Origin: a virus
Lineage: Duplodnaviria; Heunggongvirae; Uroviricota; Caudoviricetes
Virus record (IMG/VR): IMGVR_UViG_2617270988_000018
Reading direction: 5' to 3' (one strand)
Length of the DNA stretch: 7,814 nt
Of the stretch, positions 1-7,814 are shown piece by piece (the stretch's first letter is position 1; each line of letters opens with the position of its first letter). The notes below the pieces were generated by a model. The model had not been told where the DNA came from. It worked only from the letters and a program-made list of their open reading frames with translations, and searched no databases. The position numbers were made by a program, and so were the translations under genes.

Positions 1-531
1 TTATGCTGCTCTCACGATATAGTTAAATGCAATGCTTCTTGGTCTGTTCTCTGAGGCAGTTGGCACTACTCTTGAAGCATCAAAATTGACTAAATGAGGA
101 TTGTTTGGGGTATTTGGAATGATTGTGGTGTTACCTATCGTATTACGAAGTGCTGATTGACTTACAAAAACACCACTCGCTGTATTAAAGCTAATAGCCG
201 CATTAGCTTCGGTTTGTCCATTACCAAATGTGCCGGTTATATTACGAATAGCATCCCCCTGAGCAGACAGAATTTCGCGCCCCGCGTCAATACCGCGCCC
301 GTCATCCCAGCCACGAATAAACTCACCACGTAAATCAGGCAATTTATTTGTCGGATAAGCCTTTGCCAGTTCCGGGTATTCTTCAGCAGAAAAAGCGGCA
401 CCGTTGCATTTCAGCCAGCCTGTTGGCGGAGTGGCGGAAGGCCACGGAACAGGCACGCCAACGGGTAATGCCGAACCTTCTCCCAAACCAACGTTTATGA
501 AAATGCAGAGATAACGGGCAACTGGCATCAT
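1..531 (-). CDS. Tail fibre variable C-terminal cassette (tail-collar-like domain), alternative and currently unfused orientation of an invertible fibre segment. The functional part is about 1..477; the first ~18 codons (478..531) read through the crossover site and are probably fortuitous.
   Basis: Translation contains the motif PTGWLKCNGAAFSAEEYPELAKAY, typical of phage tail-fibre C-terminal (tail collar) domains. The ORF ends with TAA at the window edge (1..3 on the minus strand). A 26-bp inversion crossover site sits at codons ~10-18, as in the Mu S/S' and P1 fibre genes. No convincing SD precedes the ATG at 531. Confidence 0.7.
   Translation of the reverse strand: MMPVARYLCIFINVGLGEGSALPVGVPVPWPSATPPTGWLKCNGAAFSAEEYPELAKAYPTNKLPDLRGEFIRGWDDGRGIDAGREILSAQGDAIRNITGTFGNGQTEANAAISFNTASGVFVSQSALRNTIGNTTIIPNTPNNPHLVNFDASRVVPTASENRPRSIAFNYIVRAA
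478..503. other. gix/hix/cix-like inversion crossover site for a serine DNA invertase (TTCTCCCAAACC-AA-CGTTTATGAAAA)
   Basis: 26-bp imperfect dyad with 12-bp half-sites around a central AA dinucleotide, matching the architecture TTnTCnnAAACC-nn-GGTTTnnGAnAA of Hin/Gin/Cin/Pin sites. It lies ~55 bp upstream of the invertase start and inside the fibre reading frame. Confidence 0.7.
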
Positions 532-558
532 CTCCGGTTTTTATTCAGGGGGATGCTC

Positions 559-1152
559 ATGCTTATTGGCTATGTGCGCGTGTCAACAAATGACCAGAAC
601 ACGGAATTGCAGCGTAACGCGCTGGAGTGTGCAGGATGTGAGCTGATTTTTGAGGATAAAATCAGCGGCACGAAGTCCGACCGACCGGGACTGAAAAAAC
701 TGCTCAGAACATTATCAGCAGGTGACACTCTGGTGGTCTGGAAGCTGGACAGGCTGGGGCGTAGTATGCGGCATCTGGTCATTCTGGTTGAGGAACTGCG
801 CGAACGCGGCGTTAATTTTCGCAGCCTGACGGATGCCATTGATACCAGCACGCCGATGGGACGTTTTTTCTTTCATGTGATGGGTGCCCTGGCTGAAACG
901 GAACGAGAACTCATTGTCGAGCGGACTCGCGCCGGACTGGAAGCGGCCAGAGCTAAAGGTCGTATTGGTGGCAGACGTTCGAAACTCACCGCGAGTGAGT
1001 GGGAGCAGGCCGGGCGGTTGTTGGCTGCAGGGGAATCACGTCAACGCGTGGCACTGATTTTTGATATTGGCCTGTCCACGCTCTATAAAAAATTCCCCGC
1101 CTCCGTGACAAAAAATAAATTGTGTCATCCCTTAGCCAACCGGGATAAATAG
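559..1152 (+). CDS. Serine recombinase, DNA invertase of the Gin/Pin/Cin/Hin family
   Basis: N-terminus MLIGYVRVSTNDQNT carries the catalytic serine motif, followed by the resolvase/invertase catalytic domain (VVWKLDRLGRS, GRFFFHVMGALAE) and a C-terminal HTH (GRIGGRR...ALIFDIGLSTLYKK). Start placed at ATG 559 rather than 553 because the SD AGGGGGA (546..552) is spaced 6 nt from 559 and the Gin/Pin proteins begin MLIGY. Confidence 0.95.
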   Translation: MLIGYVRVSTNDQNTELQRNALECAGCELIFEDKISGTKSDRPGLKKLLRTLSAGDTLVVWKLDRLGRSMRHLVILVEELRERGVNFRSLTDAIDTSTPMGRFFFHVMGALAETERELIVERTRAGLEAARAKGRIGGRRSKLTASEWEQAGRLLAAGESRQRVALIFDIGLSTLYKKFPASVTKNKLCHPLANRDK

Positions 1153-2989: not shown

Positions 2990-3265
2990 ATGAACAAAGA
3001 AAATGTGATTACCCTGGACAATCCGGTCAAGCGTGGTGAGCAGGTTATCGAACAGGTCACGCTGATGAAGCCCAATGCCGGGACGCTGCGCGGTGTCAGT
3101 CTGGCTGCGGTCGCAAACTCCGAAGTCGATGCACTGATTAAGGTGCTGCCGCGCATGACGGCACCGATGCTGACCGAGCAGGAAGTCGCCGCGCTGGAAC
3201 TGCCTGACCTTGTGGCGCTGGCCGGTAAGGTGGTCGGTTTTTTGTCGCCGAACTCGGTGCAGTAA
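2990..3265 (+). CDS. E: Tail assembly chaperone (P2 gpE), zero-frame product
   Basis: 91-aa ORF between tube and tape-measure genes, matching P2 E in length and position. Contains the slippery heptamer T_TTT_TTG near its 3' end. Confidence 0.9.
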   Translation: MNKENVITLDNPVKRGEQVIEQVTLMKPNAGTLRGVSLAAVANSEVDALIKVLPRMTAPMLTEQEVAALELPDLVALAGKVVGFLSPNSVQ

Positions 3266-3417
3266 CGTTCCCGAAAAATCTCTCGGTCGATGACCTGATG
3301 GCGGATGTGGCAGTGATATTTCACTGGCCGCCATCAGAACTGTATCCCATGAGCCTGACCGAACTCATCACATGGCGCGAAAAGGCGCTCCGGCGAAGCG
3401 GAAACACGAATGAGTAA
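2990..3417 (+). CDS. E+E': Tail assembly chaperone fusion E+E', made by a programmed -1 ribosomal frameshift at TTTTTTG (3238..3244); predicted 142 aa
   Basis: After a -1 slip, the frame from 3244 is open for 57 codons (VAELGAVTFPKNLSVDDLMADVAVIFHWPPSELYPMSLTELITWREKALRRSGNTNE) and stops at TAA 3415..3417, overlapping the T start at 3410. The 142-aa total matches P2 E+E' as recalled, and the arrangement is analogous to lambda G/GT. Confidence 0.75.
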
Positions 3418-5857
3418 CAATGTAAAATTACAGGTATTGCTCAGGGCTGTTGACCAGGCATCCCGCCCGTTTAAATCCATCCGCACAGCGAGCAAGTCGC
3501 TGTCGGGGGATATCCGGGAAACACAAAAATCACTGCGCGAGCTGAACGGTCACGCATCCCGTATTGAGGGATTTCGCAAGACCAGTGCACAGCTCGCCGT
3601 GACTGGTCATGCACTTGAAAAGGCACGGCAGGAGGCCGAAGCCCTTGCCACACAGTTTAAAAACACCGAACGTCCGACACGTGCTCAGGCGAAAGTGCTG
3701 GAATCCGCGAAGCGTGCGGCGGAGGACTTACAGGCGAAATATAACTGCCTGACGGATTCCGTTAAACGCCAGCAGCGGGAACTGGCCGTTGTGGGAATTA
3801 ATACCCGCAATCTTGCACATGATGAGCAGGGACTGAAAAACCGTATCAGTGAAACCACCGCACAGCTTAACCGTCAGCGTGATGCGCTGGCGCGTGTCAG
3901 TGCGCAACAGGCAAAACTTAACGCAGTCAAACAGCGTTATCAGGCCGGAAAGGAACTGGCCGGAAATATGGCCTCAGTAGGCGCTGCCGGTGTGGGGATT
4001 GCGGCGGCGGGAACGATGGCCGGAGTTAAATTGCTGATGCCCGGTTATGAATTTGCGCAGAAAAACTCAGAATTGCAGGCCGTGCTCGGAGTGGCAAAAG
4101 ACTCCGCCGAAATGACCGCACTCCGCAAGCAGGCGCGCCAGCTCGGCGACAATACCGCAGCCTCGGCAGATGATGCAGCCGGTGCACAGATTATCATTGC
4201 GAAAGCCGGTGGGGATGTTGATGCCATTCAGGCGGCAACGCCGGTCACGCTGAATATGGCGCTGGCGAACCGCCGCACGATGGAAGAAAACGCCGCCCTG
4301 CTGATGGGGATGAAATCCGCCTTTCAGCTTTCAAACGATAAGGTCGCTCATATCGGGGATGTTCTCTCCATGACGATGAACAAAACCGCCGCCGATTTTG
4401 ACGGCATGAGCGATGCGCTGACCTATGCCGCACCTGTGGCAAAAAATGCCGGTGTCAGCATTGAAGAAACCGCCGCAATGGTCGGGGCGCTGCATGATGC
4501 AAAAATCACAGGCTCAATGGCGGGGACGGGAAGCCGTGCCGTGTTAAGCCGCCTGCAGGCACCGACGGGAAAAGCATGGGATGCACTCAAAGAGCTTGGC
4601 GTGAAAACCTCAGACAGCAAGGGAAACACCCGGCCAATATTTACCATTCTGAAAGAAATGCAGGCCAGTTTTGAGAAAAACCGGCTCGGTACTGCCCAGC
4701 AGGCTGAATACATGAAAACCATTTTCGGGGAGGAGGCCAGCTCAGCCGCCGCTGTGCTGATGACTGCCGCCTCAACCGGAAAGCTGGACAAACTGACCGC
4801 TGCGTTTAAAGCCTCAGACGGGAAGACCGCAGAGCTGGTAAATATCATGCAGGACAACCTCGGCGGTGACTTTAAGGAGTTTCAGTCCGCTTATGAGGCG
4901 GTGGGGACTGACCTGTTTGACCAGCAGGAAGGCGCACTGCGTAATCTCACGCAGACGGCCACAAAGTATGTGTTAAAACTCGACGGCTGGATCCAGAAAA
5001 ACAAATCACTGGCGTCAACCATCGGCATCATTGTCGGTGGTGCACTGGCACTGATTGGTGTCATCGGTGCCATTGGCCTCGTCGCCTGGCCGGTTATCAC
5101 CGGCATCAATGCCATCATCGCGGCAGCAGGCGCAATGGGGGCAATCTTCACGACGGTTGGCAGTGCTGTTATAACCGCCATCGGGGCGATTAGCTGGCCG
5201 GTTGTGGCCGTGGTGGCCGCCATTGTCGCCGGGGCGTTGCTTATCCGTAAATACTGGGAGCCTGTCAGCGCATTCTTTGGCGGTGTGGTGGAAGGGCTGA
5301 AAGCGGCATTTGCGCCGGTGGGGGAACTGTTCACGCCACTTAAACCGGTGTTTGACTGGCTGGGTGAAAAGTTACAGGCCGCGTGGCAGTGGTTTAAAAA
5401 CCTGATTGCCCCGGTCAAAGCCACCCAGGACACCCTGAACCGTTGCCGTGACACGGGCGTCATGTTCGGGCAGGCACTGGCTGACGCGCTGATGCTGCCG
5501 CTTAATGCGTTCAACAAACTGCGCAGTGGTATTGACTGGGTACTGGAAAAACTCGGTGTTATCAACAAAGAGTCAGACACACTTGACCAGACCGCCGCCA
5601 GAACTCAAGCCGCCACGTATGGCAGCGGTGGTTATATTCCGGCGACCAGCTCTTATGCAGGTTATCAGGCTTATCAGCCGGTCACGGCACCGGCTGGCCG
5701 CTCTTATGTAGACCAGAGTAAAAACGAATATCACATCAGCCTGACGGGTGGTACTGCGCCGGGGACACAGCTCGACCGCCAGTTACAGGATGCGCTCGAA
5801 AAATACGAGCGGGATAAACGTGCGCGCGCCCGTGCCAGCATGATGCATGACGGTTAA
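3410..5857 (+). CDS. T: Tail tape measure protein (P2 gpT)
   Basis: 815-aa ORF, same length as P2 T. Coiled-coil-like N-terminal region, then an Ala/Gly-rich segment and a long hydrophobic stretch (~5021..5245), typical of tape measure proteins. Confidence 0.95.
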   Translation: MSNNVKLQVLLRAVDQASRPFKSIRTASKSLSGDIRETQKSLRELNGHASRIEGFRKTSAQLAVTGHALEKARQEAEALATQFKNTERPTRAQAKVLESAKRAAEDLQAKYNCLTDSVKRQQRELAVVGINTRNLAHDEQGLKNRISETTAQLNRQRDALARVSAQQAKLNAVKQRYQAGKELAGNMASVGAAGVGIAAAGTMAGVKLLMPGYEFAQKNSELQAVLGVAKDSAEMTALRKQARQLGDNTAASADDAAGAQIIIAKAGGDVDAIQAATPVTLNMALANRRTMEENAALLMGMKSAFQLSNDKVAHIGDVLSMTMNKTAADFDGMSDALTYAAPVAKNAGVSIEETAAMVGALHDAKITGSMAGTGSRAVLSRLQAPTGKAWDALKELGVKTSDSKGNTRPIFTILKEMQASFEKNRLGTAQQAEYMKTIFGEEASSAAAVLMTAASTGKLDKLTAAFKASDGKTAELVNIMQDNLGGDFKEFQSAYEAVGTDLFDQQEGALRNLTQTATKYVLKLDGWIQKNKSLASTIGIIVGGALALIGVIGAIGLVAWPVITGINAIIAAAGAMGAIFTTVGSAVITAIGAISWPVVAVVAAIVAGALLIRKYWEPVSAFFGGVVEGLKAAFAPVGELFTPLKPVFDWLGEKLQAAWQWFKNLIAPVKATQDTLNRCRDTGVMFGQALADALMLPLNAFNKLRSGIDWVLEKLGVINKESDTLDQTAARTQAATYGSGGYIPATSSYAGYQAYQPVTAPAGRSYVDQSKNEYHISLTGGTAPGTQLDRQLQDALEKYERDKRARARASMMHDG

Positions 5858-5871
5858 GGAGGTGACGAAAA

Positions 5872-6351
5872 ATGATGCTCGCGTTAGGTATGTTTGTTTT
5901 TATGCGCCAGACGCTGCCACACCAGACCATGCAGCGTGAATCAGATTATCGCTGGCCGTCAAATTCCCGTATCGGTAAACGGGACGCTTTTCAGTTTCTC
6001 GGTGTGGGTGAGGAAAACATCACGCTTGCCGGTGTGCTTTATCCCGAACTGACCGGCGGCAAGCTGACGATGACCACGCTCAGGCTGATGGCAGAGGAGG
6101 GGCGGGCGTGGCCGTTGCTGGATGGCACCGGCATGATTTACGGCATGTATGTCATCAGCAAGGTGAGTGAAACAGGGAGTATTTTCTTTGCAGACGGCAC
6201 ACCCCGGAAAATTGATTTTACGCTGTCGCTCACCCGCGTTGATGAATCACTGGCCGCGCTTTATGGCGATATCGGTAAACAGGCGGAATCGCTCATCGGT
6301 AAGGCCGGTAGTCTGGCGACTAGATTCACGGGGATGACGGGGGCGGAATAA
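5872..6351 (+). CDS. U: Tail protein U (P2 gpU)
   Basis: 159-aa ORF, same length and position as P2 U. Strong AGGAGG SD at 5857..5862. Its stop overlaps the D start (TAATG). Confidence 0.9.
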   Translation: MMLALGMFVFMRQTLPHQTMQRESDYRWPSNSRIGKRDAFQFLGVGEENITLAGVLYPELTGGKLTMTTLRLMAEEGRAWPLLDGTGMIYGMYVISKVSETGSIFFADGTPRKIDFTLSLTRVDESLAALYGDIGKQAESLIGKAGSLATRFTGMTGAE

Positions 6352-7514
6352 TGCTGGATGCGCTGACATTTGATGCAGGCAGTACGCTGACGCCGGATTA
6401 CATGCTGATGCTCGACAGCAGGGATATTACCGGCAATATCAGCGACCGTCTGATGAGCATGACTCTGACGGATAACCGGGGCTTTGAGGCTGACCAGCTT
6501 GATATTGAACTGAACGATGCCGACGGGCAGGTCGGGCTGCCGATTCGTGGCGCTGTCCTGACGGTGTATATCGGCTGGAAAGGTTTTGCCCTGGTATGCA
6601 AAGGGAAATTTACCGTTGATGAGGTTGAACACCGGGGCGCGCCGGATGTGGTCACCATCCGCGCCCGGAGTGCAGATTTTCGCGGGACGCTCGATTCCCG
6701 CCGTGAAGGCTCCTGGCATGACACCACGCTCGGTGCGATTGTTGAGGCAATAGCCTCCCGTAACAGGCTGGAAGCCAGTGTCGCGCCGTCACTGGCCGGA
6801 ATTAAAATCCCGCACATCGACCAGTCGCAGGAGTCTGATGCGAAATTCCTGACCCGTCTTGCAGAACGCAACGGCGGTGAGGTGTCGGTAAAAATGGGAA
6901 AACTGCTGTTTCTCAAAGCGGGGCAGGGGGTGACTGCCAGCGGTAAAAAAATCCCGCAGATTACCATCACCCGCAGCGACGGTGACCGTCATCATTTTGC
7001 GATTGCTGACCGTGGAGCCTATACCGGCGTAACGGCAAAGTGGTTACACACCAAAGACCCGAAACCACAAAAGCAGAAGGTAAAACTGAAACGCAAAAAG
7101 AAAGAAAAACACCTGCGCGCACTGGAGCACCCGAAAGCAAAACCGGTCACGCAGAAGAAAGCGCCAAAAGTACCGGAAGCGCGCGAAGGTGAATACATGG
7201 CAGGTGAGGCTGACAACGTTTTTGCCCTGACCACGGTATATGCCACGAAAGCGCAGGCCATGCGCGCCGCTCAGGCGAAGTGGGATAAGCTGCAACGGGG
7301 CGTTGCGGAGTTCTCTATCAGTCTGGCTACTGGTCGGGCAGATATTTACACGGAAACGCCGGTCAAAGTATCAGGCTTTAAGCGCGTCATAGACGAGCAG
7401 GACTGGACAATCACTAAGGTGACACATTTTCTGAATAATAGCGGCTTCACGACGTCCCTGGAGCTTGAGGTCAGGCTTTCTGATGTGGAGTACGAAACAG
7501 AAGATGATGAGTGA
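6351..7514 (+). CDS. D: Tail/baseplate hub-like protein D (P2 gpD, late control gene D family)
   Basis: 387-aa ORF, same length and position as P2 D. Start overlaps the U stop (TAATG at 6349..6353), indicating translational coupling. Contains an internal Lys-rich low-complexity linker. Confidence 0.93.
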   Translation: MLDALTFDAGSTLTPDYMLMLDSRDITGNISDRLMSMTLTDNRGFEADQLDIELNDADGQVGLPIRGAVLTVYIGWKGFALVCKGKFTVDEVEHRGAPDVVTIRARSADFRGTLDSRREGSWHDTTLGAIVEAIASRNRLEASVAPSLAGIKIPHIDQSQESDAKFLTRLAERNGGEVSVKMGKLLFLKAGQGVTASGKKIPQITITRSDGDRHHFAIADRGAYTGVTAKWLHTKDPKPQKQKVKLKRKKKEKHLRALEHPKAKPVTQKKAPKVPEAREGEYMAGEADNVFALTTVYATKAQAMRAAQAKWDKLQRGVAEFSISLATGRADIYTETPVKVSGFKRVIDEQDWTITKVTHFLNNSGFTTSLELEVRLSDVEYETEDDE

Positions 7515-7595: not shown

Positions 7596-7814
7596 ATGTT
7601 TCATTGTCCTTTATGCCAGCATGCCGCACATGCGCGTACAAGTCGCTATATCACTGACACGACAAAAGAGCGTTATCACCAGTGTCAGAACGTGAATTGC
7701 AGCGCCACGTTCATCACTTATGAGTCGGTACAGCGATACATCGTGAAGCCGGGAGAAGTCCACGCCGTGAGGCCGCACCCGTTGCCGTCAGGGCAGCAAA
7801 TTATGTGGATGTAA
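7596..7814 (+). CDS. ogr: Late-gene transcriptional activator Ogr (Cys4 zinc finger, Ogr/Delta family)
   Basis: 72-aa product MFHCPLCQHAAHARTSRYITDTTKERYHQCQNVNCSATF... with a C-X2-C...C-X4-C zinc-binding arrangement, matching P2 Ogr by recollection. Start set at ATG 7596 (preceded by an SD) rather than the upstream ATG 7533 of the 93-aa track ORF. TAA stop is at the window end. Confidence 0.93.
   Translation: MFHCPLCQHAAHARTSRYITDTTKERYHQCQNVNCSATFITYESVQRYIVKPGEVHAVRPHPLPSGQQIMWM

Follow-up and report, generated by a model that had tools for sequence, protein, structure and literature searches.

The 26-bp sequence at positions 478-503 of the window, the whole stretch of 7,814 nucleotides of viral DNA that was analysed, is very probably the invertase-proximal, pixR-type crossover site of a Din-family inversion switch in a P2-like prophage. 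A crossover site at this position had been proposed from the letters of the DNA alone, without database searches; that interpretation is supported because all of the proposed checks that were run came out in its favour.

Gene content of the prophage tail region

The window, 7.8 kb long, spans the tail end of a prophage of the P2-like (Peduovirus) type, with the gene order derived from the list of open reading frames, annotated relatives and Pfam labels on near-identical contigs. An ORF with a phage tail Collar domain occupies 1-531 on the minus strand. The plus strand carries a serine recombinase (559-1152), followed by the sheath gene FI (1212-2402), the tube gene FII (2415-2933), E with E' next (2990-3265), the tape measure gene T (3410-5857), U (5872-6351), D (6351-7514) and ogr, whose ORF is listed from 7533 and ends at 7814; all tail genes in the window are open. 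Between 3234 and 3416, a run GGTTTTTTG close to where gene E ends precedes a short ORF out of frame with it; relatives have this ORF annotated as a GpE family protein, and the layout resembles the tail-chaperone frameshift of P2 (E/E+E').

A pixR-type crossover site

Crossover sites of the Din family (Hin, Gin, Cin and Pin) are 26 bp long and consist of a 2-bp core flanked by two 12-bp half-sites of imperfect symmetry, and the sequence at 478-503 has this form. Read directly from the window it is TTCTCCCAAACCAACGTTTATGAAAA, i.e. TTCTCCCAAACC-AA-CGTTTATGAAAA, exactly as given in the sequence-only reading. The description of this stretch as an imperfect palindrome around a central dinucleotide is equally accurate: TTCTCCCAAACC agrees with TTTTCATAAACG, the reverse complement of the right arm, at eight of 12 positions, with the central AA in between. 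The 26-mer is unique in the window, where a search with both the 26-mer and the inner 14-mer at up to three mismatches found no further copy, and none of 200 dinucleotide-preserving shuffles matched it.

Alignment to known sites, taken from the annotated records of Mu, E. coli K-12 e14 and P1, had been suggested as a check and gives a clear outcome. The window site is identical at all 26 positions to the e14 site of K-12 (NC_000913.3 1209605-1209630), which lies 54 bp upstream of pinE, while its identity to cixL/cixR is 19/26 and to gix 17/26. The pixR entry in a published table of Din-family sites, TTCTCCCAAACC AA CGTTTATGAAAA, is the window sequence itself (PMC3241671 Table 3). One detail of the earlier interpretation has to be revised, namely that the CGTTT at the start of the right half is a minor deviation; rather, it is canonical for pixR and also found in the mix sites of p15B (PMC3241671 Table 3).

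The site lies upstream of the invertase gene, with 55 bp between the 26-mer and the start codon at 559, and marks the 5' end of a tail-fibre C-terminal cassette on the minus strand (1-489). The inner half-site (478-489) is located within the invertible segment, is identical in the partner site described below and together with the core encodes GLGE on the minus strand; this left arm and core (478-491) are the only fibre-coding part of the site. The central AA (490-491) is the putative point of staggered cleavage and strand exchange: an AA core is common to the partner, pixL/R, cixL/R and hix, and the crossover positions given for cixL and cixR in the P1 record correspond to these two bases. 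The outer half-site CGTTTATGAAAA (492-503) is conserved with the invertase-side DNA and stays beside the invertase gene in both orientations.

An inverted partner within the fibre gene H

An exact-protein look-up with the cassette ORF led to three contigs. Contig L005 is 100% identical to the window over positions 1-2034, and L003 matches it at 99.97% along the entire 7,814 bases. The proposed leftward search for an inverted copy succeeds in both, where the partner TTCTCCCAAACC-AA-GGTATGCAAGAA (= TTCTCCCAAACCAAGGTATGCAAGAA) is found 1,900 bp from the window site, centre to centre; this places it outside the window, about 1.4 kb past its left edge. The two sites share an identical inner 14 nt, TTCTCCCAAACCAA, and therewith the same core dinucleotide AA. 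In both contigs, the ORF that holds the partner is intact and 399 aa long; it begins where gene I ends and represents the H fibre gene of P2. The segment between the sites comprises the present C-terminus of H with a gp53-like C domain, its tfa gene, a tfa gene in the opposite direction and the Collar cassette. No third site was found in the 20.5-kb near-identical contig at up to three mismatches in the 14-mer, and a multi-site shufflon like Min of p15B or that of an EPEC P2-like prophage was therefore rejected. Some P2-like relatives have three sites and act as small shufflons (PMC4272514); here two were found.

H is not annotated consistently around the partner site. In E. coli KTa005, a 94%-identical relative (L001 4536-5957), H is annotated as an incomplete pseudogene with a separate gp53-like ORF, and in L003 (11566-12765) the gene caller gave only a 136-aa piece of the ORF that is intact at 399 aa.

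Alternative C-termini for one fibre

On the coding strand, H reads CTT GGT TTG GGA GAA across its site (...AYLGLGEAAKR...) and the cassette GTT GGT TTG GGA GAA (...NVGLGEGSALP...). GLGE is encoded in one and the same frame by both sites, which allows either cassette to join the constant part of H. In silico inversion between the core dinucleotides accordingly converts the 399-aa H into an open 438-aa fibre, ...LLAYLGLGEGSALPVGVPVPWPSATPP..., so that the parental and recombinant genes have alternative C-termini, each with its own tfa, and the two tfa genes are opposed.

The junctions also occur in nature. The recombinant junction, 400 nt of H constant part, site and window cassette, matches without interruption, at up to 97.8% identity, in 380 of the 5,426 complete E. 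coli genomes; the parental junction, 400 nt of cassette, site and invertase side, is present in 909 of the same 5,426. In strain AH21, a prophage of the same kind carries H with a Collar-type end and tfaE, with the gp53-like cassette inverted beside the recombinase, which is the flipped state. At the population level, both orientations are thus seen, as a Din-family inversion entails. The in-frame fusion of a constant N-terminus to alternative C-termini, part of the original proposal, is in this way borne out by the two GLGE-encoding sites, the 438-aa product and the natural genomes.

Inversion has been shown at the TTGGTTTGGGAGAAGG / CCTTCTCCCAAACCAA repeats of e14 (PMC12529663), and phase variation by inversion was detected experimentally in the P2-like prophages of EPEC E2348/69 (PMC4272514). 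In principle, however, old events instead of ongoing switching could account for the two orientations found in different genomes. The alternative fibre ends differ in their C-terminal domain, Collar versus gp53-like C, and the orientation of the segment would be expected to change the host range.

The silent cassette in the window

The minus-strand element at 1..489 is an alternative tail-fibre C-terminal cassette of 162 aa from GLGE to the stop, recognised by its Pfam Collar match (E 1.7e-15), its similarity to HK97 stf, the simulated inversion and the natural fusion in AH21 and other strains, where it is joined to the constant part of H. In the window orientation it runs antisense to the late tail operon, and the constant N-terminus of the fibre lies outside the window; since the cassette is thus devoid of the H constant N-terminus and antisense to the tail genes, it is read as silent.

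The ORF at 1-531 does stay open across the site (...IFINVGLGEGSALP...), as the sequence-only reading had stated, but the 14 codons that precede GLGE at 492-531 (MMPVARYLCIFINV) are a read-through of the spacer between site and invertase and not fibre sequence. Likewise, the site is indeed in the fibre frame, but the reading frame in which it is embedded in the window is the silent C-terminal cassette and not the fibre gene itself. RefSeq and gene callers list the cassette as a free-standing 175-aa 'phage tail protein' (L001 7001-7528). The start codon of this 175-aa ORF falls in the site-invertase spacer, and the first 14 codons of the 175/176-aa ORF are therefore probably not genuine coding sequence.

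Over window positions 1-499, the cassette has 92% DNA identity to the C-terminal part of HK97 stf (L089 1501-1999), in which a pix-like sequence, TTCTCCCAAACCAAGGTTTGTGCGAG, is found at the same ...NLGLGEGSALP... junction. No invertase gene is present around this pix-like site in the annotated stretch, and the GLGE/crossover motif is consequently a module boundary in non-inverting fibre genes as well.

Invertase and candidate recombinational enhancer

The gene at 559..1152 (plus strand) encodes a serine DNA invertase of 197 aa and lies outside the invertible segment. Its product contains Pfam Resolvase (E 1e-51) and HTH_7 (E 8e-13) domains, is 86% identical to PinE, 78% to Cin and 76% to Gin, and has Gin as its closest solved structure (3uj3, E 3.4e-93). 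The YVRVS motif with the nucleophile Ser9 is invariant with PinE, Cin and Gin; the ORF is full-length, and none of the residues invariant in all three is changed. Adjacent to the site there is thus a small serine recombinase with the catalytic domain, the serine and the C-terminal HTH of the Din family. The invertase ends in a tail, ...SVTKNKLCHPLANRDK (window 1110-1152), that extends 13 residues beyond PinE (197 versus 184 aa) and is kept in the closest P2-like relatives (residues 1-197, 95-98% identity).

Within the 5' part of the invertase gene, the Gin, Cin, Pin and Hin systems contain a Fis-dependent enhancer in cis. The stretch at 577..648 (plus strand) is homologous to the recombinational enhancer of P1 cin, annotated at cin nt 19-90 in the P1 record, with 57 of 72 positions identical compared with 67% in the rest of the gene. 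Synonymous codon variation in the invertase gene is lowest at the enhancer end (0.55 versus 0.84 bits). A strict degenerate Fis consensus, GNNYRNNWNNYRNNC, matches once, at nt 71-85, in the invertase genes of the window, e14, P1 and Mu alike; the second expected Fis site was not found in the enhancer homologue with this consensus. Overall, the similarity supports 577-648 as a candidate recombinational enhancer, and inversion may, by homology, be Fis-dependent. A sigma-70 consensus scan of 380-1260 detected no promoter-like site for the invertase.

Conservation at the boundary of exchangeable cassettes

The proposed check of conservation at fibre constant/variable junctions covered 75 IMG/VR loci with upstream sequence and an invertase closely related to that of the window. 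The exact 26-mer is present in 46 of the 75, most others being one to three bases off. The distance from site to invertase start codon is always 54-55 bp in close relatives, and an inverted partner is found 1.5-2.5 kb away in most loci with enough flank.

In 71 loci anchored on the site, position-by-position identity to the window is about 30-50% up to 476 and 88-100% from 477 to about 509, except for 78% at 498, with the step located exactly at 477/478. The inner half-site 478-489 is the only part of the cassette that is kept across unrelated cassettes (97-100% per position, except for 88% at C484). Phage records that share the invertase side only have matches beginning at window position 477, 480 or 492. 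The identity step and these match start points together place the border between exchangeable cassettes and conserved DNA exactly at the site.

Five loci depart from this pattern in that the inverted partner is a full pixR-type 26-mer instead of the H site, identical in L030, L038 and L045 and with one mismatch in L019 and L041. In L030 (2707-3202 and 4917-7795), the sequence after the partner is inverted and has 84% identity to the 5' region of the invertase gene, and the invertible segment of this locus seems to be bracketed by two invertase-side ends. Such double ends could represent a duplication, an assembly artefact or a different architecture.

Relation to known inversion systems

The pixR/Pin system belongs to the defective prophage e14 of E. 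coli K-12 and was reportedly described by Plasterk and van de Putte in 1985. The window element and e14 have in common the 26/26 site, its distance of 54-55 bp from the invertase start, the 86% identity of the invertase to PinE, 85.5% DNA identity over window positions 251-989, and the order of fibre constant part, cassette, tfa, inverted tfa', inverted cassette', site and invertase. They differ in that the window element is a P2-like myovirus prophage with FI, FII, E, T, U, D and ogr downstream, whereas e14 is a lambdoid remnant; in the outer arm of the partner, which is GGTATGCAAGAA in relatives of the window and GGTTTTCGAGAG in pixL; and in the 13 extra C-terminal residues that make the invertase 197 aa long compared with the 184 aa of PinE.

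The Cin/cix system of P1 and the Gin/gix system of Mu are built along the same lines, with a constant S (or H) N-terminus, two inverted cassettes that each have an assembly gene, and an invertase outside the segment that is 78% (Cin) or 76% (Gin) identical to that of the window. The core AA of cix is shared with the window site, and the enhancer annotated inside the 5' end of cin has its conserved counterpart here. In contrast, identity between sites reaches just 19/26 for cix and 17/26 for gix, whose core is GA; the invertible segments of P1 (4.2 kb) and Mu (about 3 kb) are longer than the 1.9 kb found here; and the crossover site of P1 lies at the 3' end of cin, whereas the window site lies upstream of the invertase gene.

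Closest in organisation are other P2-like elements. The phage pro483 has the same 26-mer, an inverted partner within a 399-aa H and the same gene order, and E. coli KTa005 has the arrangement seen in pro483 and in the near-identical contigs. Compared with the invertible segments of P2-like prophages there is no difference in kind; the cassette sequences vary from one prophage to another.

A model for the switch and its alternatives

In the mechanism that we propose, the serine invertase, encoded 55 bp to the right, would bind the window site as a dimer and likewise the inverted partner that the near-identical contigs place 1.9 kb to the left, inside the tail-fibre gene H. Synapsis of the sites would follow, by analogy assisted by Fis at an enhancer within the 5' end of the invertase gene, and 2-nt staggered cuts would be made at the central AA of both, followed by rotation of one half and rejoining of the ends. 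As a result, the roughly 1.9-kb segment, containing two cassettes for the fibre C-terminus and one tail-fibre assembly gene for each, would flip, and either cassette could join the constant N-terminal 276 residues of H. In the window orientation, the Collar cassette (1-489, minus strand) would be silent. We infer that the switch is active in this lysogen.

A different use of the same inversion, by the host and not the phage, appears unlikely here. According to this idea, chimeric or free fibre fragments alter the adsorption of unrelated phages, and a recent paper makes this claim for the P segment of e14, whose sites are identical (PMC12529663). One such fragment might be the 175-aa ORF, which starts from an ATG of its own directly past the site. 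If host use were true, invertases encoded elsewhere in the genome might flip the P2-like segment in trans.

We consider it improbable that the site, while a genuine pix-type site, belongs to a relic switch, with the prophage or its invertase unexpressed or inactive and the segment frozen in its present orientation. The consensus scan found no promoter-like site upstream of the invertase, RefSeq annotates H of the 94%-identical KTa005 as an incomplete pseudogene, and e14 is itself defective, with its P segment mostly in one orientation (PMC12529663). A relic is at odds, however, with a full-length invertase in which the residues invariant among PinE, Cin and Gin are all kept, with two intact sites that share an identical inner 14 nt, with an intact 399-aa H in the 99.97%-identical contig and an entirely open set of tail genes in the window, and with the fact that both orientations are common among closely related prophages.

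It is very improbable that the sequence functions mainly as an operator, besides or instead of recombination, at which the invertase regulates its own transcription from 55 bp upstream of its start codon. The high conservation of the site and of the 55-bp spacer, at a fixed 54-55 bp from the start codon, would fit such a role, and the predicted promoters upstream of cin in the P1 record make regulation near such genes plausible. Yet the consensus scan gave no promoter-like hexamers that overlap or flank the site, and in P1 the predicted cin promoters lie upstream of cin while cixL is at its 3' end, so that promoter and crossover site need not coincide; moreover, the sharp homology breakpoint and the recombinant junctions are explained by recombination and not by an operator.

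Finally, the notion that the 26-mer is a chance imperfect palindrome that merely resembles an invertase site deserves practically no credence: its arms match at just 8/12 positions and it lies within an open reading frame, but it is refuted by 26/26 identity to a published, experimentally defined pixR, an inverted partner where one is expected within the fibre gene, the fixed distance to the invertase gene in dozens of loci, the natural recombinant junctions and the failure of all 200 shuffles to match.

Implications for P2-like prophages

The mechanism, the sequence of the site and its occurrence in P2-like prophages are all already in the literature, so that nothing about the switch itself is new and its significance beyond correct annotation is small. 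For annotation, the 175/176-aa 'phage tail protein' ORF beside the invertase is to be regarded as a silent, exchangeable cassette with a probably spurious stretch of 14 codons at its start. With two alternative C-termini available to the fibre gene of such elements, predictions of host range for P2-like prophages should weigh both orientations.
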